From Acipenser ruthenus (Eukaryota), in contig NC_081214.1 of the NCBI RefSeq assembly GCF_902713425.1, positions 10,880,641-10,944,640 on the forward strand: a stretch of DNA of 64,000 nt, in the 5' to 3' direction. Position numbers and translations under genes: made by a program. Of the stretch, positions 2,669 through 54,090 are shown piece after piece. The first letter of the stretch is position 1, and the number at the start of each line of letters is the position of its first letter. The notes beneath the pieces were generated by a model, which was given only the letters and a program-made list of their open reading frames with translations, did no database searches and was not told the DNA's origin.

Positions 2669-5101
2669 ACTGCTGCCTAATGTGCTGAAACAACCTAATG
2701 TGCTGCTAGGGTGCAATTTTAGAGTTAGTCAGGGATAATGTAGCTGCCCCTCCCAGTATACCCTGATGGCATTTGAGCACGAAAATAAGGAAGTTATAAT
2801 CCCACCCACCCAGAACCGCCAAAGCCGTCAGTTTGACTGCCTTTTACAATACATGTTTTTATTTTGAATATAACCTACAATAGTCTATTTTATTTTTAAA
2901 TACACGCCTGTTGTTATCTCTACTGGACCTGGCAGCCATCAATTCCTTTGTTTTGTACAAGGAATGCCCTGGGTAAAATATCAGTAGGAGAGATTTCATC
3001 TTGAAGCTAGCCACAGCGCTTCAGCAGAAACATTTTGATCAGCTCAACCTGGACTCTGTGCTGCACCGAGTGACACACACGCAAGAGAAAACATGTTACT
3101 TTCGTTTTAAGTTTTGTACGTACATATACCTGTTTACACACTAGTTTCTTTTGAAATGTTTATTTTATTATAGTTTTTCATTTTTTGAAGCACTGCTTTA
3201 TATGTGTTTATAAGTTAGAAAATAAACTTATGTTTAATTTAAATACGGCGTTTCGGCTTTGAAGATGTTTGATATGATGTGCTTGAATAAAACTTTGGAG
3301 TTGTATCCAATAGTTTGTCTTTCATTTTAATATTGATGTTGTTTAAAATGTACTGTGATAATGGCTGCCGGCAGTGGTTTTAGGTATGAGTATAACCGCG
3401 GCAGTTCTAGTGTTAAACTCATTCCATTGAAAGCCAGAATAACAACAATTAAAAAAAAAACACTGACTACTGTATCTTCATAGGACACAAGCTATGACTA
3501 ATGTGCATAACATATACTGTATGATTTTTCACACCCTGATTACAAAGCGAAATCTGTGCCATTAACAAATACAAAATGAACAGGACTGTATAATAGTTTG
3601 ACTCAGAGTAGTGAACCATTATAGTTGGTCGTGTACAAGTACGGTATCAGTAGTATAAATACATATTTACATTAATAAGGACACTGCAGATCGTTTCAGA
3701 TTTTTGGTGGATTAATCGTCTCCTGTACGCTTAAAAAGGGTGCGAGTTCTGTGGGGTATTTATACTTGCAAGCACTTTTTACACAGCCTGCTACATTGAT
3801 TTTAGTAAAATAACTATAACTCCTCCCGTTTGAACAACCTTGTGTGAACAATCAGTTAACATCAGAGCATAACTCCAAACCACGTGCAGTTTAGCAGCGC
3901 TCTGACAAAACGCATGACTGTCTTTAAAGCCTCTTTAAATCCAGAGTTCCCTGCTTTTTTGTTTAATGCATTTTCTGCTTTCTTTCGCCACCTGTTGGAT
4001 AGACTAATGAAGCGCAGATAATTCAATGCTGTCAGAAAAAAAAAGGATTTCAAACCTGCAACATTTTTGCTTTATCTCATGACAGGTGAATAGCTGGCTT
4101 TGGCTACCACTGTATGTACAAACTGAACACAGTTACAATGCTTCTGTGCATAAACATATCACTCCTGGGAAAATATTCAAATATTCAAACATGCCTGAAA
4201 TGTAATCCAAGATGACCATGTTTATATTACATATAACAGTATTTATAAATGACTATCAAAAAAGATGCAAAGGAAACCAATGCATACATGATTCAATAAC
4301 ACCCATCCCATTCAACTGCACAGAAGAGGGCTTCTCACCTTTCTGCAGTATGTCATTTGATTAATTTTACTCCTGAGAGTACAAATTATAGAATATTCGT
4401 TACAATTCTGAAAGACTATCTGAGCATGAAAATATTTTTTTAAGGCTTGGTATATTCTTTAGGAGGAGGTAAACGAACTGGAAAGACAACAAGGCATTGA
4501 TTCTTATGATGTAGAAGGCACAGAAGGGTTAACTATTGGCTCATTCTAGCTCAAGTCTATGGAATTGTTGAAATAAACCATGGACACTGATTCCAGGGAG
4601 AAATCTAGGTCTTTCAAGTGGCTCACGTGAGGCCCCTACCCTAGGTTAAAACTCAGCTGTGTTTCAAAATGTACTATAGCAATGCCCAAACAAACTGGAC
4701 TTAAAGTAAGCATGGGCTTGAAACCTGATACAGTCTCCTGTATGAATCAAATATGCTTTAACAAATCATGTATTTCTCTATGCAAATAAACCGTGTTGTT
4801 GTATTGCTCTTGGAGGGCACCGCATTGTGATTGAACCATTCATTTATATAGGAGGTGGGTCAGCGATATTCTGTTTAATTTAGTCAGCCATGGCGGGACC
4901 ACAGTGACAAAGAGTACAAATCCCTACTCCCTGATAGTGGCCCGCTCTGCACTCTGAGGGTAAGGTTTAGGAATAAAGGAGTGGTTGCTTTTTGTGTTCG
5001 GGCTTCACAACTGAGGAACTCTGCCGATCATGTCGTAGGTTAGCCCACAGTGGCTACTTTTAAATCAAGGCTTAAGGCTTATGTCATGGTTATTTTAACT
5101 G

Positions 5102-12477: not shown

Positions 12478-13137
12478 AGAAATGACAGCTCCAAATGGGC
12501 TACCCTGTGTTTTGACTGAAATGTACACTGTTGCAGCAGCAAAGGTAATTCAAAATGATCTAGACAGCATTCAGAACTGGGCAGACACATGGCAAATGAC
12601 ATTTAATATAGAAAAGTGTAAGGTACTGCACGCAGGCAATAGAAATGTGCATTATAAATACCATATGGGAGACACTGAAATTCAAGAAGGAATCTATGAA
12701 AAAGATCTAGGAGTTTATGTTGACTCAGAAATGTCTTCATCTAGACAATATGAAAATAAAAAAAGGCTAACAAAATGCTCTGACATATTGTGAGAAGTGT
12801 TGAATTTAAATCAAGGGAAGTAATGTTAAAACTTTACAATGCATTAGTAAGACCTCATCTAGAATATTGTGTTCAGTTGTGGTCACCTCGTTACAAAAAG
12901 GATATTGCTGCTCGAGAAAGAGTGCAAAGAAGAGCAACCAGAATTATCCCTGGTTTAAAATGCATGTCATATGCAGACAGGCTAAAACAATTGAATATTT
13001 TCAGTCTTGGACAAAGAAGACTACGTGGTGATCTGATTCAAGCATTCAAAATTCTAAAACGTATTGACAATGTTGACCCAAGGGACTTTTTCTACTTGAA
13101 AAAAGAAACAAGTGGAGATTAGATAAAGGGGCATTGT
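12478..13137 (+). mobile_element. CR1-like LINE fragment (RT C-terminal region)
   Basis: ORFs 12482-12793 and 12790-13122 encode VIQNDLDSIQNWADTWQM.FN..KCKVLH and LRPHLEYCVQLWSP...RRATRIIPGL...RLRGDLIQAFKI. These are about 85-90% identical to the reference copy at 31230-31850. Confidence 0.85.
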
Positions 13138-13930: not shown

Positions 13931-14027
13931 GTTGGTGGTCAGAAGTAGGATAGCGCCACCTGGAGGCTCAGAGCAGTAATTTTTTTTTTTTCTTGAATTT
14001 TGGGAGTTTTTTTTTTTTTTTTGGAAA

Positions 14028-14195
14028 ATGGGGAAGAGCAGACAGCGGCAAAGGCAGGAGAAGCAGCAGCCGAAGAAATGTAGGCTGCTGCAACAACAGC
14101 CACCCCAGCTGGAGGACCCAGCCAGTCTTTTCCCCTGGTGCTCCTGGTGCGGGAAGGAGGATCATCGGTGGAGGTCCTGTCCAGATGGGCTACCA
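14028..14195 (+). pseudogene. gag/nucleocapsid remnant with CCHC zinc knuckle (C-X2-C-X4-H-X4-C at 14139-14180)
   Basis: MGKSRQRQRQEKQQPKKCRLL...PWCSWCGKEDHRWRSCP; runs directly into the 36-bp repeat array. Confidence 0.6.
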
Positions 14196-15360
14196 GAGAC
14201 GAGCTGCCGTTCCCGCCTCCGCCAGCAGAGGGAGACGAGCTGCCGTTCCCGCCTCCGCCAGCAGAGGGAGACGAGCTGCCGTTCCCGCCTCCGCCAGCAG
14301 AGGGAGACGAGCTGCCGTTCCCGCCTCCGCCAGCAGAGGGAGACGAGCTGCCGTTCCCGCCTCCGCCAGCAGAGGGAGACGAGCTGCCGTTCCCGCCTCC
14401 GCCACTAGAGGGAGAGGGGCCGCCGTTCCCGCCTCCGCCAGCAGAGGGAGACGAGTTGCCGTTTCTGCCACTAGAGGGAGAGGGGCCGCCGTTCCCGCCT
14501 CCGCCACTAGAGGGAGAGGGGCCGCCGTTCCCGCCTCCGCCAGCAGAGGGAGACGAGCTGCCGTTCCCGCCTCCGCCAGCAGAGGGAGACGAGCTGCCGT
14601 TCCCGCCTCCGCCAGCAGAGGGAGACGAGCTGCCGTTCCCGCCTCCGCCAGCAGAGGGAGACGAGCTGCCGTTCCCGCCTCCGCCAGCAGAGGGAGACAA
14701 GCTGCCGTTCCCGCCTCCGCCAGCAGAGGGAGACGAGTTGCCGTTCCCGCCTCCACCAGCAGAGGGAGACGAGCCGCCGTTCCCGCCTCCGCCAGCAGAG
14801 GGAGACGAGCCGCCGTTCCCGCCTCCGCCAGCAGAGGGAGACGAGCCGCCGTTCCCGCCTCCGCCAGCAGAGGGAGCCGGGCTGCCGTTCCCGTCTCCGC
14901 CAGCAGAGGGAGCCGGGCCGCCGTTCCCGTCTCCGCCAGCAGAGGGAGCCGGGCCGCCGTTCCCGCCTCCGCCAGCAGATGGAGACGAGCCGCCGTTCCC
15001 GCCTCCGCCAGCAGAGGGAGACGAGCCGCCGTTCCCGCCTCCGCCAGCAGAGGGAGCCGGGCCGCCGTTCCCGCCTCCGCCAGCAGAGGGAGCCGGGCCG
15101 CGGTTCCCGCCTCCGCCAGCAGAGGGAGCCGGGCCGCGGTTCCCGCCTCCGCCAGCAGAGGGAGCCGGGCCGCCGTTCCCGTCTCCGCCAGCAGAGGGAG
15201 CCGGGCCGCCGTTCCCGTCTCCGCCAGCAGAGGGAGCCGGGCCGCCGTTCCCGTCTCCGCCAGCAGAGGGAGCCGGGCCGCCGTTCCCGTCTCCGCCACC
15301 AGAGGGAGCCGGGCCGCCGTTCCTGCCTCCGCCACCAGAGGGAGCCGGGCCGCCGTTCCC
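14195..15360 (+). repeat. 36-bp minisatellite (about 32 copies; unit about gagacgagctgccgttcccgcctccgccagcagagg) inside the LTR element
   Basis: Highly homogeneous tandem array. It is open in several frames (GDELPFPPPPAE / RRAAVPASASRG), so the 381-626-aa track ORFs across it are low-complexity artefacts. Confidence 0.95.
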
Positions 15361-15366
15361 GTCTCC

Positions 15367-15516
15367 GCCTCCCGAGGGTCCGCTGCTGCTGCCGTCGCCT
15401 CCCGAGGGTCCGCTGCTGCTGCCGTCGCCTCCCGAGGGTCCGCTGCTGCTGCCGTCGCCTCCCGAGGGTCCGCTGCTGCTGCCGTCGCCTCCCGAGGGTC
15501 CGCTGCTGCTGCCGTC
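15367..15516 (+). repeat. 30-bp minisatellite x5 (cctcccgagggtccgctgctgctgccgtcg)
   Basis: Direct reading; adjacent to the 36-bp array. Confidence 0.95.
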
Positions 15517-15817
15517 GCCTGGGGTTGCCAGGGATCCTGCTTCGCCTGGGGTCGCTACACTATGGCCGGAGCCCCACGGAGGGGAGTTGCTGACCATGAA
15601 GAGGGGGAGGGAGGTCAGGAGACCAGCTCCCCCAGCGGCACTGTCGCGGCAAGATAGTGTGTGGCCGGAGCCCCGGAAGAGGGAGCTGCTGGCCACGAAG
15701 AATTGGGTGGTGCCGGACGTCCCACCATGGCCACCCCCATGGACACTGTGCTTCCCCCTCTTCCGGGACTGAGACTGAGGGGGGAGGTGGCCATTTAGGC
15801 CATGTTGTGCTTGGCAC

Positions 15818-15829
15818 AAGGGGGGGATA
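15818..15829 (+). promoter_or_regulatory. Polypurine tract (aagggggggata) of the LTR element
   Basis: Purine run immediately upstream of the 3' LTR start TGTGACGG. Confidence 0.6.
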
Positions 15830-16274: not shown

Positions 16275-18118
16275 CACCTCTAATCAGTACTTTCTGTTTT
16301 CTGCATGTTAACCACTCCCTAATCCATGTGCATGCATTTCCTTGAATCCCTATTGCGTTCAGTTTGATTAATCTTTTAATGCGGGACTTTGTCAAAAGCT
16401 TTCTGGAAATCTAAATAAACCATGTCATATGCTTTGCAATTATCCATTGTTGATGTTGCATCCTCAAAAAAATCAAGCAGTTTAGTTAGACACGATCTCC
16501 CTTTCCTAAAACCATGCTGACTTTCCCAGGATACTGTTACCATATAGGTAATTTTCCATTTTAGATCTTTATTATAGTTTCCATATGTTCACATATAATA
16601 GAAGTCAGGCTTATTGGTCTGTACTTACCTGGTTCGGTTTTGTCTCCCTTTTTGTGGATTGGTATTACGTTTGCAATTCTCCAGTCTGTCGGTACAACCC
16701 CTGTCTCAAGAGACTGTTGTATGATCTTGGTTAGTGGTTTAGAAATAACTTCTTTCATTTCTTTCAGTAATTTTGGGAGGATCTCATCTGGCCCAGGGGA
16801 TTTGTTTATTTTAAGAGCTCATAGTCCCTTTAATACTTCTGCCTGTGTTATGCTAAAGTTATTTAAAACTGGATAGGAACAGGTTGACATTGGGGCATGT
16901 TGTCCGTATCCTCCTTTGTAAAAACTTGTGAAAAGTAATCATTTAATATATTTGCTATTTTTTTCTCTTGGTCTATGATTTTGCCATTTATATCTCTTAG
17001 ACATTTAACCTCCACTTTGAATGTTCTCTTGCTGTTATAATATTGGAAAAACTTTGTGGAATTGGTTTTATGCCCCCTAGCAATGTTCATTTCTATCTCT
17101 CTTTTGGCCTTTATAACTTCCTTTTTGACTTGTGTTTGCAGTTCCAAGTACTCTTTCTGTGTACTTTGTTCTTGGTCCCTTTTAAACGCTCTGTAAAATG
17201 CCTTTTTTCGCTGAATATTGTTTTAATTGATCTATTAAACCATTTTGGCCATTTTGTTTCAGATTTAGATTGGTCTACTTTTGGGATGTAATTGTTTTGC
17301 GCCACTAGTACTACATTTTTAAAAAACAGCCATCCTTTTTCTGTGGATGTTTTCTCTATTTACTCCAATCTACTTCTGTTAGTCTCTGTTTCATACCTTT
17401 ATAATTTGCCTTGTTTTTTGGGGGTTTTTAAAATCACTTAAAATGAGACCATGTTGTGGTCTGAGTTTGCCAATGGTTCTCTGACCTCTGTTTTAGTTAT
17501 TCTGTCTTTGTTATTAGAAAAGACTAAATCTAGTCGGTGCCTTGACAAATTGTGTTAGGAAGCAGTCGTGCCCCCCATCGGGTTTTCCCATTTTATACGG
17601 GGGAAGTTGAAATCCCCCATTAGTATGGCTTCTCCTTTTCTACACGTATTTCTAATGTCATTGTATAAGATTATTTTGCTCGGTGTCTGAATTTGGCGAT
17701 CTATAGCATGCTTCTATTATTATGCCCTTTGAATTTTTGTCCATTATTCTGACCCATATTGATTCAGCGTTGTTTTCTTCGTCTAGATTTAACACTTGGG
17801 CTTCAAGACTATTTCTTATGTATAGCGCTACCCCTCTGCCTCTTCTGTCCTGCCTGTCTTTCCTATATAGTGTGTACCCACTAATATTATATTCGTCTCC
17901 ATTACTCTCAGATAACCAAGTTTCTGTAACACCTATCACATCGTAGTTACTTGTTAGTACAGTAGCTTCAAGTTCTAACATTTTGTTTCTAATACTTTTA
18001 GCATTTAGATAAATACATTTAATGGCTGTCTTACCTGAGTTGTTGCCCTTGTTTTGATGTGGTCTCCCTTCTGTTTTTTTGTTGATTTCACCCCCCTTCA
18101 TTTATAGTTTAAATGTCA
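16275..18118 (-). mobile_element. CR1-like LINE, inverted copy, part 2 (APE endonuclease and RT N-terminal regions)
   Basis: Minus ORFs 17658-18101 (APE: NKKTEGRPHQNKGNN...IGVTETWLSESNGDEYNISGY...ALYIRNSLE) and 16561-16758 (RT: VVPTDWRIANVIPIHKKGDKTEPGKYRPISLTSI). It continues the 13138-13485 segment across the LTR insertion. Confidence 0.85.
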
Positions 18119-29402: not shown

Positions 29403-29789
29403 GTGATAGGTGTTACAGAAACTTGGTTGTCTGAGAGTGATGGAGACGAATATAATATTAGTGGGTACAAACTATATAGGAAAGACAGGCAGGACAGAAG
29501 AGGCGGAGGGGTAGCGCTATACATAAGAAATAGTCTTGAAGACCAGGTGTTAAATCTGGACAAAGAAAACAATGCAGAATCAATATGGGTCAGAAAAATG
29601 GACACAAATTCAAAGGGCATAATAATAGGAGCATGTTATAGACCGCCAAATTCAGACACCGAGCAAAATAATCTGTTATACAATGACATTCGAAATACGT
29701 GTAGAAAAGGAGAAGCCATACTAATGGGGGATTTCAACCTCCCCCGTATAAAATGGGAAAACCCGATGGGGGGCACGACTGCTTCCTAA
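29403..29789 (+). pseudogene. CR1 ORF2 apurinic-endonuclease domain (frameshifted relative to RT)
   Basis: IGVTETWLSESDGDEYNISGYKLYRKDRQDRRGGGVALYIRNSLE...MGDFNLP. Confidence 0.8.
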
Positions 29790-30450
29790 CACAATTTGTC
29801 AAGGCACCGAGTAGAGGGGAGGCATGCCTTGATTTAGTCTTTTCAAATAATGAAGACAGAATAACTAAAACAGAGGTCAGAGAGCCATTGGCAAACTCAG
29901 ACCACAACATGGTCTAATTTGAAATATTTTTAAAAACCCCAAAAGTAATGACTAAAGCTAAGGTTTACAATTTTAGAAAAGCAAACTATGAAGGTATGAA
30001 ATGGAGACTAACAGAAGTAGATTGGAGTAAAATAGAGAAAACATCCACAGAAAAAGGATGGCTGTTTTTTAAAAATGTAGTACTAGAGGCACAAAACAAT
30101 TACATCCCAAAAGTAGACAAATCTAAATCTAAAACAAAATGGCCAAAATGGTTTAATAGATCAATTAAAAAAATATTCAGCATAAAAAGGCACTTTACAG
30201 AGCATTTAAAAGGGACCAAAAACAAAGTACACAGAAAGAGTACTTGGAACTGCAAACACAAGTCAAAAAGGAAGTTAGAAAGGCCAAGAGAGAGAGATAG
30301 AAATCAATATTGCTAAGGGGGCTAAAACCAATTCGAAAATATTTTTCCAATATTATAACAGCAAGAGAACATTCAAAGAGGAGGTTAAATGTCTAAGAGA
30401 CACAAATGGCAAAATCATAGATGAAGAAAAAAAAATAGCAAATATATTAA

Positions 30451-31842
30451 ATGATTACTTTTCACAGGTTTTTACAAAGGAGGACACGGACAACATGCCC
30501 GACATGTCGACATGTCGGTCTAGGAGCTCTTAAAATAAACAAATCCCCTGGGCCAGATGAGATCCTCCCAATAGTACTCAAAGAAATGAAAGAAGTTATT
30601 TACAAACCGCTAACCAAGATCATGCAACAGTCTCTTGACACAGGGGTTGTACCGACAGACTGGAAAATAGCAAACGTAATTCCGATCCACAAAAAGGGAG
30701 ACAAAACCGAACCAGGTAACTACAGACCAATAAGCCTGACTTCTATTATATGTAAACTTATGGAAACTATAATAAGATCCAAAATGGAAAATTACCTGTA
30801 TGGTAACAATATCCTGGGAGACAGCCAGCATGGTTTTAGGAAAGGGAGATCGTGTCTAACTAACCTACTGGACTTTTTTGAGGATGCAACATTGAAAATG
30901 GATAACTGCAAAGCATACAACATGGTTTATTTAGATTTCCAGAAAGCTTTTGACAAAGTCCCGCACAAAAGATTAATTCTCAAACTGAACGCAGTAGGGA
31001 TTCAAGGAAATGCATGCACATGGATTAGGGAGTGGTTAACAGGTAGAAAACAGAAAGTACTGATTAGAGGAGAAACCTCAAAATGGAGTGAGGTAACCAG
31101 TGGTGTACCACAGGGATCAGTATTAGGTCCTCTGCTATTCCTAATCTACATTAATGATTTAGATTCTGGTATAGTAAGCAAACTCGTTAAATTTGCAGAC
31201 GACACAAAAATAGGAGGAGTGGCAAACACTGCTGAAGCAGCAAAGGTCATTCAAAATGATCTAGACAGCATTCAGAATTGGGCAGACACATGGCAAATTA
31301 AATTTAATAGAGAAAAGTGTAAAGTATTGCATGCGGGCAATAAAAATGTGCATTATAAATATCATATGGGAGATAGTGAAATTGAAGAAGGGAACCATGA
31401 AAAAGGCCTAGGAGTTTATGTTGACTCAGAAATGTCTTCATCTAGACAATGTGGGGAAGCTATAGAAAAGGCTAACAAGATGCTTGGATATATTGTGAGA
31501 AGTGATGAATTTAAATCAACAGAAGTAATGTTAAAACTCTACAATGCATTAGTAAGACCTCACCTAGAATATTGTGTTCAGTTCTGGTCACCTCGTTACA
31601 AAAAGGATATTGCTGCTCTAGAAAGAAAGAGAGTGCAAAGAAGAGCAACCAGAATTATCCCGGGTTTAAAAGGCATGTCGTATGCAGACAGGCTAAAAGA
31701 ATTGAGTCTATTCAGTCTTGAACAAAGAAGACTACGCGGTGATCTGATTCAAACATTCAAAATCCTAAACGGTATAGACAATATCAACCCAGGGGACTTC
31801 TTTGACCTGAAAAAAGAAACAAGGACCAGGGGTCACAAATAG
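30451..31842 (+). pseudogene. CR1 ORF2 reverse transcriptase domain, 463-aa open segment
   Basis: RT motifs as above; the upstream in-frame region is interrupted. Confidence 0.85.
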
Positions 31843-35758: not shown

Positions 35759-35761
<3 letters not shown>

Positions 35762-37338
35762 TACTGTGCAAAAGTTTTAGGCAGGTGTGAAAAAATGCTG
35801 TAAAGTAAGAATGCTTTCAAAAATAGACATGTTAATAGATTATATTTATCAATTAACTAAATGCAAAGTGAGTGAACAGAAGAAAAATCTAAATCAAATC
35901 CATATTTGGTGTGACCACCCTTTGCCTTCAAAACAGCATCAATTCTTCTAGGTACATTTGCACAAAGTCAGGGATTTTGTAGGCATATAGTCAGGTGTAT
36001 GATTAAACAATTATACCAAACAGGTGCTAATGATCATCAATTCAATATGTAGGTTGAAACACAATCATTAACTGAAACAGAAACAGCTGTGTAGAAGGAA
36101 TAAAACTGGGTGAGGAACAGCCAAACTCAGCTAACAAGGTGAGGTTGCTGAAGACAGTTTACTGTCAAAAGCCATATACCATGGCAAGACTGAGCACAGC
36201 AACAAGACACAAGGTAGTTATGCTGCATCAGCAAGGTCTCTCCCAGGCAGAAATTTCAAGGCAGACGGGGGTTTCCAGATGTGCTGTCCAAGCTCTTTTG
36301 AAGAAGCACAAAGAAACGGGCAACGTTGAGGACTGTAGACGCAGTGGTCTGCCAAGGAAACTTACTGCAGCAGATGAAAGACACATCATGCTTACTTCCC
36401 TTCGCAATCGGAAGATGTCCAGCAGTGCCATCAGCTCAGAATTGGCAGAAAACAGGGGACCCTGGTACACCCATCTACTGTCCGGAGAAGTCTGGTCAGA
36501 AGTGGCCTTCATGGAAGACTTGCTGCCAAAAAGCCATACCTCCGACGTGGAAACAAGGCCAAGCGACTCAACTATGCACGAAAACACAGGAACTGGGGTG
36601 CAGCAAAGTGGCAGCAGGTGCTCTGGACTGATGAGTCAAAATTTGAAATATTTGGCTGTAGCAGAAGGCAGTTTGTTCGCCGAAGGGCTGGAGAGCACTA
36701 CACGAATGAGTGTCTGCAGGCAACAGTGAAGCATGGTGGAGGTTCCTTGCAAGTTTGGGGCTGCATTTCTGCAAATGGAGTTGGGGATTTGGTCAGAATT
36801 AATGGTCTCCTCAATGCTGAGAAGTACAGGCAGATACTTATCCATCATGCAATACCATCAGGGAGGCATCTGATTGGCCCCAAATTTATTCTGCAGCATG
36901 ACAACGACCCCAAACATACAGCAAAAGTCATTAAGAACTATCTTCAGCGTAAAGAAGAACAAGGAGTCCTGGAAGTGATGGTATGGCCCCCACAGAGTCC
37001 TGATCTCAACATCATCGAGTCTGTCTGGGATTACATGAAGAGAAAGAAGCAACTGAGGCTGCCTAAATCCACAGAAGAACTGTGGTTAGTTCTCCAAGAT
37101 GTTTGGGCCAACCTACCTGTCGAGTTCCTTCAAAAACTGTGTGCAAGTGTACCTAGAAGAATTGATGCCGTTTTGAAGGCAAAGGGTGGTCACACCAAAT
37201 ATTGATTTGATGTAGATTTTTCTTCTGTTCACTCACTTTGCATTTTGTTAATTGATAAATATAAACTATTAACATGTCTATTTTTGAAAGCATTCTTACT
37301 TTACAGCATTTTTTCACACCTGCCTAAAACTTTTGCAC

Positions 37339-37344
<6 letters not shown>
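35759..37344 (+). mobile_element. Tc1-like DNA transposon, family 1, copy a (about 1.59 kb, long terminal inverted repeats, TA target)
   Basis: Termini cagtactgtgcaaaagttttaggcaggtgtgaaaaaatgctgtaaag... / ...ctttacagcattttttcacacctgcctaaaacttttgcacagtact; transposase ORFs 36139-36729 and 36618-37205 (DDE: DESK..., DNDPKH, SPDLNIIE). Confidence 0.9.
36181..37205 (+). pseudogene. Tc1 transposase (frameshifted into 196-aa and 195-aa ORFs)
   Basis: N-terminal paired-like DBD MARLSTATRHKVVMLHQQGLSQAEISRQTGVSR...; C-terminal DD34E domain intact in the second ORF. Confidence 0.85.

Positions 37345-37415
<71 letters not shown>
37345..37415. repeat. (TA)n microsatellite between the two adjacent Tc1 elements
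   Basis: Direct reading. Confidence 0.95.
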
Positions 37416-37420
<5 letters not shown>

Positions 37421-39029
37421 TGCCTTGCAAAAGTATTCAGACCCCTGACCAATTCTCTCATATTACTGAATTACAAATGGTACATTGAAATTTCGTTCTG
37501 TTTGTTATTTTATTTTAAAACACTGAAACTCCAAAATCAATTATTGTAAGGTGACATTGGTTTTATGTTGGGAAATATTTTTAAGAAAAATAAAAAAAAC
37601 TGAAATATCTTGCTTGCATAAGTATTCAACCCCTGTGCTGTGGAAGCTCCCAGTTTACACCAATGAAAGAAATTGCCCTAATGAGGACACAATTACCTTA
37701 CCATTGGCCTCCACCTGTGAACCATTAAAGTTGCTGTCACATTTTCTGGATAAAAACCCCACTGTTGAAGGATCATTGGTCAGGCTGTGAATCTGAAGGA
37801 AAATGAAGACCAAAGAGCATTCTACAGAAGTTAGAGATAAAATAATACAAATGCATAGATTAGGGAAAGGGTACAAAATAATATCCAAGTGTTTGGATAT
37901 CCCAGTGAGCACAGTTGGATCAGTAATCAGGAAGTGGAAGCTGCATCACACCACCCAGGCACTGCCAAGAAAAGGCCGTCCATCAAAGCTCAGCGCTCAA
38001 ACAAGAAGGAGACTTGTGAGAGAAGCCACAGAGAGGCCAACAATCACTTTGAAGGAGCTACAGAGTTCAGTGGCTGGGAGTGGAATAATGGTGCACCAGT
38101 CAACCATATAAAGAGCTCTGCATAACACTGGCCTATATGGGAGGGTGGCAAGAAAGAAGCCGTTACTCAAAAAGTACCATCTGAAAGCACGTCTGGAGTT
38201 TGCCAGAAAGCATGAGAGTGACCCAGCTGCGATGTGGGAAAAGGTTTTGTGGTCAGATGAGACCAAGATAGAGCTTTTTGGCCAAAACTCAAAGTGCTAT
38301 GTGTGGCGCAAACCTAACACTGCCCATGCCTCAAGACACACCATCCCTACTGTGAAGTATGGTGGTGGCAGCATCATGCTGTGGGGATGCTTCTCATCAG
38401 CAGGGACTGGGCATCTTGTTAAAATTGAAGGAAGAATGGATGGAGCAACATACAGGGAAATACTGCAAGAGAACCTGCTTCAGTCTGCTAAAAAACTGAA
38501 GCTTGGGAGGAAATTCACCTTTCAGCAGGACAATGATCCCAAGCACAAGGCCAAAGCAACATTGGAGTGGCTGAAGAACAAAAAGGTGAATGTCCTACAG
38601 TGGCCCAGTCAAAGTCCTGATCTCAATCCCATTGAGAATCTGTGGCACTATTTGAAAATTGCGGTCCACAAGTGTCGTCCAACCAACATGAACAACCTGG
38701 AGCAAATCTGCCAAGATGAATGGGCCAAAATCACTCCGACACTGTGTGCAAAGCTGGTACATACTTACCCCAAAAGACTTAAAACTGTTATTGCAACGAA
38801 AGGTGGCTCTACCAAATATTAATGTGTGGGGGTTGAATACTTATGCAAGCAAGATATTTCAGTTTTTTATTTTTCTTAAATATTTCCCAACATAAAACCA
38901 ATGTCACCTTACAATAATTGATTTTGAGTTTCAGTGTTTTAAAATAAAATATCAAACAGAAGGAAATTTCAATGTACCATTTGTAGTTCAGTAATATGAG
39001 AAAATTGGTCAGGGGTCTTTTGCAAGGCA

Positions 39030-39033
<4 letters not shown>
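37416..39033 (+). mobile_element. Tc1-like DNA transposon, family 2 (Sleeping Beauty-like), about 1.62 kb, TA target-site duplication
   Basis: TIRs cacagtgccttgcaaaagtattcagacccctgaccaat / attggtcaggggtcttttgcaaggcactgtg; contains a 340-codon transposase frame. Confidence 0.9.
37803..38822 (+). pseudogene. SB-like Tc1 transposase, 340 codons, single in-frame TAA (38112-38114), otherwise intact
   Basis: Same frame throughout: ...GIMVHQSTI*RALHNTGLYGRVARKKPLLKKYHLKARLEFA...WSDETKIELFG...FQQDNDPKHKAK...WPSQSPDLNPIENLW...KGGSTKY; about 55% identity to SB10 from memory; DDE triad present. Confidence 0.85.

Positions 39034-39102
<69 letters not shown>
39034..39102. repeat. (TA)n microsatellite
   Basis: Direct reading. 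Confidence 0.95.
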
Positions 39103-39129: not shown

Positions 39130-39228
39130 GGGACTTCTTTTGCCAAAAGTTGCGATTGAACAACACGGCATTGATAGGACGGATATTGGTAACCTTGGAT
39201 GTGGCATTTACTTCAGCAATGCATTGAG
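39130..39228 (+). CDS. parp4: PARP4-like exon, PARP catalytic domain (GLLLPKVAIEQHGIDRTDIGNLGCGIYFSNAL)
   Basis: Acceptor ttacag|, donor ttgag|gtctgg; matches GLLLPKVVEDRGVQRTDVGNLGSGIYFSDSL. Confidence 0.8.
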
Positions 39229-39322: not shown

Positions 39323-39506
39323 CACAATTCTCAAGTATTCAAAGCCTAGTGAAAGTGATGGCACGCGGCTCCTGGTGGTTTGTGACATCGCTCTCGGTGA
39401 GTGCAAGCACCTGCACAAGAAAGATTTCACCTTGGCATCTGCGCCAGCCGGGTACAGCAGTGTGCTCGGAGTGCGGCAGACTGCAGACGTTGCTTCGGAA
39501 TTCCAG
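39323..39506 (+). CDS. parp4: PARP4-like exon, PARP catalytic domain (TILKYSKPSESDGTRLLVVCDIALGECKHLHKKDFTLASAPAGYSSVLGVRQTADVASEFQ)
   Basis: Acceptor cttacag|, donor ttccag|gtactg; matches IKYSHPGETDGTRLLLICDVALGKCMDLHEKDFSLTEAPPGYDSVHGVSQTASVTTDFE. Confidence 0.85.
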
Positions 39507-49875: not shown

Positions 49876-51462
49876 CAGTACTGTGCAAAAGTTTTAGGCA
49901 GGTGTGAAAAAATGCTGTAAAGTAAGAATGCTTTCAAAAATAGACATGTTAATAGTTTATATTTATCAATTAACAAAATGCAAAGTGAGTGAACAGAAGA
50001 AAAATTTACATAAAATCAATATTTGGTGTGACCACCCTTTGCCTTCAAAACAGCATCAATTCTTCTAGGTACACTTGCACACAGTTTTTGAAGGAACTCG
50101 GCAGGTAGGTTGGCCCAAACATCTTGGAGAACTAACCACAGTTCTTCTGTGGATTTAGGCAGCCTCAGTTGCTTCTTTCTCTTCATGTAATCCCAGACAG
50201 ACTCGATGATGTTGAGATCAGGGCTCTGTGGGGGCCATACCATCACTTCCAGGACTCCTTGTTCTTCTTTACGCTGAAGATAGTTCTTAATGACTTTCGC
50301 TGTATGTTTGGGGTCGTTGTCATGCTGCAGAATAAATTTGGGGCCAATCAGATGCCTCCCTGATGGTATTGCATGATGGATAAGTATCTGCCTGTACTTC
50401 TCAGCATTGAGGAGACCATTAATTCTGACCAAATCCCCAGCTCCATTTGCAGAAATGCAGCCCCAAACTTGCAAGGAACCTCCACCATGCTTCACTGTTG
50501 CCTGCAGACACTCATTCGTGTAGCGCTCTCCAGCCCTTCGGCGAACAAACTGCCTTCTGCTACAGCCAAATATTTCAAATTTTGACTCATCAGTCCAGAG
50601 CACCTGCTGCCATTTTGCTGCACCCCAGTTCCTGTGTTTTCGTGCATAGTTGAGTCGCTTGGCCTTGTTTCCACGTCGGAGGTATGGCTTTTTGGCAGCA
50701 AGTCTTCCATGAAGGCCACTTCTGACCAGACTTCTCCGGACAGTAGATGGGTGTACCAGGGTCCCCTGTTTTCTGCCAATTCTGAGCTGATGGCACTGCT
50801 GGACATCTTCCGATTGCGAAGGGAATTAAGCATGATGTGTCTTTCATCTGCTGCAGTAAGTTTCCTTGGCCGACCACTGCGTCTACGGTCCTCAACGTTG
50901 CCCGTTTCTTTGTGCTTCTTCAAAAGAGCTTGGACAGCACATCTGGAAACCCCTGTCTGCCTTGACATTTCTGCCTGGGAGAGACCTTGCTGATGCAGTA
51001 TAACTACCTTGTGTCTTGTTGCTGTGCTCAGTCTTGCCATGGTGTATGACTTTTGACAGTAAACTGTCTTCAGCAACCTCATCTTGTTAGCTGAATTTGG
51101 CTGTTCCTCACCCAGTTTTATTCCTCCTACACAGCTGTTCCTGTTTCAGTTAATGATTGTGTTTCAACCTACATATTGAATTGATGATCATTAGCACCTG
51201 TTTGGTATAATTGTTTAGTCATACACCTGACTATGTGCCTACAAAATCCCTGACTTTGTGCAAGTGTACCTAGAAGAATTGATGCTGTTTTGAAGACAAA
51301 GGGTGGTCACACCAAATATGGATTTGATTTAGATTTTTCTTCTGTTCACTCACTTTGCATTTAGTTAATTGATAAATATAATCTATTAACATGTCTATTT
51401 TTGAAAGCATTCTTACTTTACAGCATTTTTTCACACCTGCCTAAAACTTTTGCACAGTACTG
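49876..51462 (-). mobile_element. Tc1-like DNA transposon, family 1, copy c (about 98% identical to copy a), TA TSD
   Basis: Perfect termini cagtactgtgcaaaagttttaggcaggtgtg...cacacctgcctaaaacttttgcacagtactg flanked by TA; transposase ORFs 50016-50603 and 50492-51082 on the minus strand, split in the same way as copy a. Confidence 0.9.
50016..51043 (-). pseudogene. Tc1 transposase (same two shared frameshifts as copy a)
   Basis: MARLSTATRHKVVILHQQGLSQAEMSRQ... / MLWTDESKFEIFGCSRRQFVRRRAGERYTNECL...KAKGGHTKY. Confidence 0.85.
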
Positions 51463-53514: not shown

Positions 53515-53698
53515 GCTTGCATGTTGGTGTTTTGCCCAGAGTTTGCTCCTAGTAGTTTTCCAGAGGACTGTGAGGTTGTGATTTTCTTGGACAGTTCCAA
53601 TTCCATGAGGGGGGCAGTGCTGCAGGAAGCCAGAAAGATTGCTCTGCGGCTGCTGAATTCACTGCATTGCAAGCTCAATGTTGTCATATTTGGTACAG
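53515..53698 (+). CDS. parp4: PARP4-like exon, vWA domain with MIDAS motif (ACMLVFCPEFAPSSFPEDCEVVIFLDSSNSMRGAVLQEARKIALRLLNSLHCKLNVVIFGT)
   Basis: Acceptor ttttcag|, donor acag|gtaggt; matches ACMLVFQPDL...SEVIICLDCSSSMEGVTFLQAKQIALHALSLVGEKQKVNIIQFGT. Confidence 0.85.
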
Positions 53699-54090
53699 GT
53701 AGGTCATGGTTAAAAAATATGAATCTCTTTTTTTCCTGCATAATCATTTTCATTACATTTGGAAGGAAATATTACTACGTTTTGTGTAAATCTCTGGGTA
53801 ATGTCACAGATAAAATTTGGTGGCCATTAGTTTGCAGAACTTAGTTTAAGACACTAATTGCATAGCAGTTGAATCCATTCCAGGTTTTTATGTGAACGTA
53901 CAGGAGATGAATGGTGTGTCTAGTTAAGCTCAGCTATGCCTAATAACCTGACATGGCTCCATTGCAAAGGGAGTCTTGTATTTGAGGTAAAGTATGTGTC
54001 TTTATGCAATTCAAGGTATTTTTCAGACTTTTGCTACCTAACCTCTAATACCAAACTTTATTTATTTTTTCAATGCTTTGTAATGTGCAG

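Follow-up and report, generated by a model that had tools for sequence, protein, structure and literature searches.

Tc1-like elements account for 16.6% of the repeats in the sterlet (PMC6739705), and one Tc1-like family with DD38E catalytic spacing, Tana1/Intruder, was initially reported from sturgeons (Pujolar, 2013; Gao, 2020, PMC7731502). Among the DD34E elements of fish, the Tc1 element Passport is native to plaice and active (Clark et al., 2009, PMC2651795), and Passport-like elements in other species share more than 80% nucleotide identity with the plaice element, PPTN (PMC2651795). Searches of the literature brought up no specific description of a DD34E family from Acipenser or Polyodon. 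The stretch of sterlet DNA analysed here (64,000 nt, hereafter the window) holds a DD34E element, the only copy of its family in the window. According to the original prediction, this copy would be a Sleeping-Beauty-like Tc1 element that is a single nonsense mutation away from an intact 340-aa transposase and suggests very recent activity. The element at 37418-39032 is very probably something else, namely a fixed, non-functional and neutrally decayed copy of an acipenseriform DD34E Tc1 transposon of the IR/DR type (Table 1).

Table 1. Coordinates of the DD34E element, its parts and its neighbours in the window.
Feature	Position	Strand	Basis
DD38E Tc1 element, Tana1/Intruder-like, ~1.59 kb	35759-37345	+	catalytic spacing of 38
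(TA)36 microsatellite separating the DD34E element from its DD38E neighbour upstream; insertion target context	37344-37415	.	
Left flanking dinucleotide CA (family: TA)	37416-37417	.	sequence, family alignment
Whole DD34E Tc1-like element, 1615 bp, CAGTGCCTTGCAAAAG... to ...CTTTTGCAAGGCACTG	37418-39032	+	alignment
Left inverted repeat, 216 bp	37418-37633	+	repeat search, consensus comparison
Left outer direct-repeat core	37424-37444	+	matches family consensus
Left inner direct-repeat core	37613-37633	+	matches family consensus
Transposase frame, 339 sense codons and terminal TAA	37803-38822	+	translation, Pfam, PDB alignment
Internal stop TAA at codon 103, from TCA (Ser)	38109-38111	+	comparison with other copies
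Right inverted repeat	38829-39032	-	copy alignment
Right inner direct-repeat core, intact	38829-38849	-	copy alignment
Right outer direct-repeat core, 7 bp deleted	39013-39026	-	copy alignment
Right flanking dinucleotide TG (family: TA)	39033-39034	.	sequence, family alignment
(TA)34 microsatellite, right side of the element	39035-39102	.	
PARP catalytic-domain exons	39130-39228, ~39323-39490; also ~53570-53700	+	Pfam PARP, E=5.6e-14
DD38E Tc1 element, Tana1/Intruder-like, ~1.59 kb	49876-51462	-	catalytic spacing of 38

The transposase frame of this element is that of a genuine DD34E Tc1-type transposase, because a 340-codon frame with one stop is essentially impossible by chance and the homology E-values decide the matter. 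Translation of the frame (+ strand) gives exactly one internal stop and no frameshift. With the stop masked, the protein matches the Pfam families HTH_SB (E=5.7e-21), HTH_Tnp_Tc3_2 (E=3.7e-23) and DDE_3 (E=3.6e-13). It aligns without gaps to the catalytic domain of SB100X (5cr4, E=4e-88), and the comparison with PDB structures also yields matches to the PAI (2m8e) and RED (5unk) subdomains of Sleeping Beauty (SB). The bipartite paired-like helix-turn-helix domain that is required for the Tc1 family is present at the N-terminus, and the catalytic triad D152/D243/E278, with spacings of 90 and 34, has the distance of 34 that characterizes the DD34E elements. The predicted presence of a complete triad is thus borne out by the gapless alignment to 5cr4, and the frame shows neither an overlooked frameshift nor a lost catalytic residue. 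The frame is also continuous as predicted, but it was thought to have the length of SB, which is 340 aa, and it encodes 339 aa.

The ends of the element were set by alignment to ten copies from the paddlefish Polyodon spathula (L001-L010, from GCA_016984195.1) and to five further copies (L011-L015), among which L011 stems from Acipenser sinensis, L012 from an ENA metagenome assembly, and L013 and L014 are Logan contigs. In this alignment the element starts with CAGTGCC... at 37418 and ends with ...GGCACTG at 39032. Ends of the form CACAGTG...CACTGTG with an outer TA duplication were considered and rejected, because the family consensus ends in CAGTG and the TA is directly adjacent. Paddlefish copies L001-L003, L006 and L008 are flanked by TA on both sides, and the family thus duplicates TA at its target. 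The window copy is flanked by CA and TG, embedded in (TA)n tracts; a TA on either side is uninformative in such a context, and CA and TG are treated as mutated or as microsatellite variants. Each of the two 216-bp inverted repeats, which are 92.6% alike, contains a direct repeat in two copies, outer and inner, with the 21-nt core CTTGCAAAAGTATTCAGACCC / CTTGCATAAGTATTCAACCCC. The two cores of the left repeat are 189 bp apart, and this arrangement is mirrored in the right repeat. This is the IR/DR architecture, a group whose inverted repeats measure ~200-250 bp and carry outer and inner direct repeats.

Contrary to what had been supposed, the inverted repeats are not intact, because the right outer direct repeat has lost 7 bp. 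The missing sequence, CTGAATA on the + strand, would lie between 39016 and 39017, and with it goes the GTATTCA core that the four direct repeats have in common. Every other copy that spans this site contains the 7 bp, so the deletion is private to the window copy. The set of four intact transposase-binding direct repeats is therefore incomplete in this copy, and judging from work on SB, the deletion would impair binding and mobilisation. Assembly errors at 39016 or at the stop position, 38110, could in principle mimic such damage. If the stop, the 7-bp deletion or both were assembly or sequencing errors, the true copy would be intact. Nothing speaks positively for such errors, apart from the general observation that single-base and short-indel errors occur in repeats and the fact that the deletion adjoins an A-run. 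However, the C>A change at the stop is no typical homopolymer error, and 22 further substitutions are evenly spread over the ORF and the non-coding parts, as would be the case for a diverged copy that was resolved correctly. Errors of this kind are thus a very improbable explanation, and the lesions are treated below as real features of a decayed copy.

The internal stop itself had been recognized correctly as a TAA, but it occupies the codon one base upstream of the previously assigned position, 38112, and the residue it was said to replace, a lysine in the motif ...STVKR..., is not the ancestral one. This motif is the sequence of SB, in which Lys aligns with the stop; the window reads QSTI*RALH. 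Codon 103 is TCA in all 15 other DNA copies examined, and Ser103 is found in all other proteins of the family that were examined, including nine further sturgeon-type proteins. The lesion is thus TCA>TAA, caused by C>A at 38110. None of the 15 other DNA copies has AAA or AAG at this codon, the check that had been proposed. An autonomous element needs an uninterrupted ORF, and that of the window copy is closed by the TAA at codon 103, in the final helix of RED, a DNA-binding subdomain. The predicted product has 102 aa and lacks the catalytic domain.

A truncated product of this kind, consisting of PAI and most of RED, might have been kept because it represses the family in trans or because it was domesticated as a protein that binds DNA. 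N-terminal fragments of SB bind direct repeats, and the changes in the first 102 codons are confined to three conservative replacements (V14I, I41V and V95I) and two synonymous substitutions. Such small counts, however, are no different from those in the remainder of the ORF. The stop, moreover, is a private feature, absent from all 15 other loci and from all other proteins examined, and its position inside the last RED helix lies ahead of the nuclear localisation region. In exact protein look-ups there was no record of the 102-aa piece, nor of the 225-aa piece of the window ORF. A retained function of the fragment is therefore hardly credible, and simple loss of function in a decaying copy is preferred.

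The stop is also far from being the only lesion, as it was believed to be. The intact consensus-type ORF of L013/L014 served as the reference for changes in the window copy, which differs from it at 17 of 1020 sites (K2P 0.017, or 1.7%). Eleven of these differences are non-synonymous (V14I, I41V, V95I, S103*, R165C, K216T, R291C, L296M, E305D, A328T and A332T) and six are synonymous (Nd=11, Sd=6); the stop is thus accompanied by 16 further substitutions in the ORF, ten of which are private missense changes. The resulting dN/dS of 0.52 does not depart significantly from 1 (p=0.24 in a binomial test of neutrality). The non-coding parts contain six private substitutions and four private indels: an additional C at 37531, an additional AA at 37592-3, the loss of AA at 38877, and the 7-bp deletion at 39016/39017. 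Divergence from the paddlefish consensus is even along the element, with 2.1% in the 5' non-coding part, 2.0% in the ORF and 2.7% in the 3' non-coding part. Such a pattern of changes indicates that the window copy underwent neutral decay after its insertion and is not a fresh arrival. With a damaged right outer direct repeat and ten private missense changes besides the stop, the whole element is more than one mutation away from autonomy. A repaired ORF might still encode an active enzyme, since the missense changes are for the most part conservative and K216T is the sole one at a residue that is at least 90% conserved in a 12-sequence alignment.

The age of the copy can be bounded from the pace of its host lineage. 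Genome evolution is slow in sturgeons and other Acipenseriformes (PMC7269910), and Ks of orthologs between sturgeon and paddlefish is below 0.3 (PMC10199039). The sturgeon-paddlefish split has been dated to 81.5 Ma (PMC8042750) or, alternatively, to ~80 My after a whole-genome duplication that took place >200 Ma, i.e. well over 100 Ma (PMC10199039). These values suggest a neutral rate of at most ~1.8e-9 per site per year, at which a divergence of 1.7% would correspond to at least ~9 My. An age of at least ~9-10 My, and probably several-fold more, is thus obtained entirely from rate bounds that derive from Ks and split dates. Some of the 17 private differences could come from an unsampled source sub-lineage, in which case the copy would be younger than estimated.

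These figures bear directly on the initial idea that the window contains a very young insertion of a currently active family, one point mutation short of an autonomous element. Several features would suit a young insertion: the 339 codons are interrupted by one stop and stay in frame throughout, the consensus is preserved in the left inverted repeat and in the two inner direct repeats, and intact family ORFs are on record from paddlefish (one protein on 21 contigs) and from two Logan contigs that share the sub-type of the window copy. However, dN/dS and copy age, the two checks suggested along with this idea, both point the other way. The ORF is 1.7% away from a consensus-type ORF and its ratio of non-synonymous to synonymous changes fits neutrality; four non-coding indels have accumulated, among them the loss in the right outer direct repeat; and the slow acipenseriform rate (PMC7269910, PMC10199039, PMC8042750) would place the insertion at least ~9 My in the past. 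Moreover, the 'identical' ORFs of paddlefish reside in copies that are ~4.4% diverged in their outer 100 bp, which suggests that their interiors were filled with consensus sequence. A very young insertion is therefore unlikely, and an old copy that decayed neutrally accounts better for the locus.

The relatives of the window copy are found in paddlefish and in other sturgeon DNA. The closest proteins are annotated as 'TCB1 transposase' of Polyodon spathula and show 95-96% identity (e.g. MBN3270843.1, here P0121, and MBN3286955.1, here P0001). The TCB1 transposase entries form a 140-member cluster at 90% identity, and P0121 (339 aa) is called on 21 contigs of the P. spathula assembly GCA_016984195.1. 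Partial proteins of Acipenser sinensis, from GCA_050626445.1, reach up to 94% identity to the window transposase. On the nucleotide level, the full element is 96-97% identical to ten paddlefish loci, one A. sinensis locus and one ENA contig. The likeness to the Polyodon and A. sinensis copies extends over both inverted repeats and the four direct repeats, and the length of 339 aa is common to them. Judged by these likenesses, the window element belongs to an acipenseriform DD34E IR/DR Tc1 family that is abundant in both paddlefish and sturgeon. Three diagnostic sites, 38422, 38457 and 38474, subdivide this family (T207K, K219E and one synonymous change): the window copy agrees with all non-paddlefish copies, and all paddlefish copies carry the alternative bases. 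The sturgeon-type consensus protein predicted from these sites (P0121 with T207K and K219E) was found exactly, as P0136, on two Logan contigs, L013 (4 samples) and L014, whose ORFs are intact and identical.

Other database records add to the picture of the family. Nine sturgeon-type proteins from ENA metagenome assemblies (L012, P0029 and P0138-P0144) are all truncated at ~200-245 aa. Several of them have in common an in-frame deletion of 18 bp (window equivalent 38371-38388) and the stop TAG at codon 242, which suggests a defective sub-lineage that recurs as host DNA in metagenome samples. A 339-aa protein deposited as 'IS630 family transposase [Escherichia coli]' (P0047) is 61% identical to the window transposase and most likely represents vertebrate Tc1 contamination of a bacterial record.

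It had further been suggested that fully active copies may exist elsewhere. Intact 339-aa ORFs are indeed present in public data, but these look like assembly consensus sequences and do not establish that individual copies are intact. Eight cleanly aligned paddlefish loci show 4.4 differences from the consensus per 100 bp and copy in their outermost 100 bp, and zero differences over the central ~1.1 kb. The gradient is steep and symmetrical, and the loci contain runs of N. Choosing copies by an identical protein cannot strip synonymous differences, yet the divergence of the interiors is zero; this suggests that the interiors of the repeats were filled with consensus sequence during scaffold assembly. 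The number of 'intact identical' transposase genes counted in GCA_016984195.1 may thus be inflated. The same caveat applies to the Logan contigs, which were assembled from short reads, and the ENA sturgeon-type proteins apart from P0136, eight in number, are all disrupted near residues 190-245, though not in one uniform manner. On the available sequences, there is a solid case that the consensus ORF of the family is open in both the paddlefish and the sturgeon-type lineage, and the existence of intact individual copies is plausible, not proven. Since the consensus ORF is intact, we infer that the family was active in geologically recent times and that some of its members may be active even now; the window copy itself does not show recent activity.

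The consensus ORFs of the paddlefish copies (L001-L010) and the non-paddlefish copies (L013/L014) differ at 3 of 1020 sites, one of them synonymous. Set against a host split of at least 80 My, this difference would fit a horizontal transfer followed by recent bursts; the low divergence could reflect either horizontal transfer or a recent common invasion. That the family is a still-active native DD34E transposon, which recently entered, or moved between, sturgeons and paddlefish, is a tentative and on balance doubtful proposition. If the family were active, it would be another case of horizontal transfer of a Tc1 element, and its consensus (P0136/P0121) would be a further candidate vector for gene transfer in vertebrates.

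In its genomic surroundings, the window copy shares the (TA)36 tract with the DD38E element upstream, which has a (TA)30 tract on its own left side. Two Tc1 elements have thus landed in one (TA)n microsatellite. SB-type transposases prefer TA-rich targets, and two elements in one tract fit this preference. The other DD38E copy in the window, at 49876-51462, has clean TA duplications. Both DD38E copies have the terminal repeat CAGTACTGTGCAAAAGTTTTAGGCAGGTG, and in each of them the transposase frame is split into two overlapping ORFs, a sign of a frameshift. Their identity amounts to 98% with a copy from A. sinensis (L011) and to 95% with one from paddlefish (L005); these values and the three diagnostic sites of the DD34E family suggest a sturgeon origin of the window. 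A DD34E element lies directly beside a DD38E copy in three of 13 loci: the window, L005 (~2590-2620) and L011 (~3340-3543). In the window and in L005, nothing but a (TA)n tract separates the two elements. Orthology of L005 and the window locus was considered and rejected, because the sequences outside both elements do not match and the insertions are thus independent. The pairings seem to be independent events, which perhaps reflect a shared (TA)n hot spot at the ends of the elements.

Downstream, the first PARP exon begins ~100 bp behind the DD34E element and on the same strand. The transposon and the (TA)34 tract are located directly upstream of a splice acceptor, and a weak match to von Willebrand factor type A is found further on from the PARP exons. 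The host gene would be consistent with a PARP4-like gene. A protein search with the PARP exons gave a single hit, at 65% identity. Elsewhere in the window, a low-complexity G/C-rich tandem array (13939-15819, both strands) contains ORFs of 380-626 aa in several frames with repeats of the type GGGGNGxSSPSA; the array probably represents a minisatellite rather than a gene. Fragments of non-LTR retrotransposons with endonuclease- and reverse-transcriptase-like ORFs occur at 29403-31842 (+), 17658-18101 (-) and 12790-13122 (+), and they are 89-94% identical to sequences in the paddlefish loci L004 and L010.

Taken together, the history of the window copy may be outlined by analogy with SB and Tc1. 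The 339-aa transposase would bind the two direct repeats of each 216-bp inverted repeat through its paired-like PAI and RED subdomains, and the DDE domain would cut the element out, which would then be re-inserted at a TA. The window copy was inserted into an extended (TA)n microsatellite within an intron of the PARP-type gene, beside the DD38E Tc1 element. Neutral decay followed and left the S103 stop, ten missense, six synonymous and six non-coding substitutions and four non-coding indels. As a consequence, the copy presumably yields no transposase, and probably it can no longer be mobilised in trans either. The window copy as such is of minor importance: few features of fish genomes are as common as decayed Tc1 copies, and native active Tc1 elements of fish are already known, among them Passport, ZB and Intruder. 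The useful outcome lies in the corrections, i.e. the ancestral codon, the damaged repeat and the real divergence, and in the caution that consensus artefacts may underlie 'identical intact copies' in assemblies at scaffold level.

In comparison with described systems, the label 'Sleeping-Beauty-like' is apt for the IR/DR architecture, the size and the order of domains, but it overstates the closeness of the two elements. The window transposase aligns with SB without gaps over 338 residues, with the DD34E residues offset by -1, and both elements favour TA or (TA)n targets. However, amino-acid identity is only 54%, obtained with an SB10 sequence that was cross-checked against the PDB alignments; the terminal repeat differs (CAGTGCCTTGCAAAAGTATTCAG in the window element); and the residue at the position of the stop is Lys in SB and Ser in the window family. 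With 54% identity, the element falls outside the SB/salmonid sub-family, and many other fish Tc1 proteins are more similar to it (65-67%). One of these, a transposase of Pleuronectes platessa (P0039), is 65% identical in the multiple alignment and 67% identical over 94% of the query, and thus ranks above SB. Passport, from the same fish, resembles the window family in its IR/DR structure, its DD34E motif and its length (1626 bp, compared to ~1622 bp for the consensus of the window family). Compared via the protein P0039 (65-67%) only, the window family would be well under the level of >80% nucleotide identity seen among Passport-like elements. Tana1/Intruder, finally, belongs to the same superfamily and inhabits the same hosts. 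However, Tana1 has a catalytic spacing of 38 and the window element one of 34, and the latter shares 41.6% identity with its DD38E neighbour over the catalytic region. An identification of the window element as Tana1 was thus rejected, and Tana1 fits the neighbouring DD38E elements instead.
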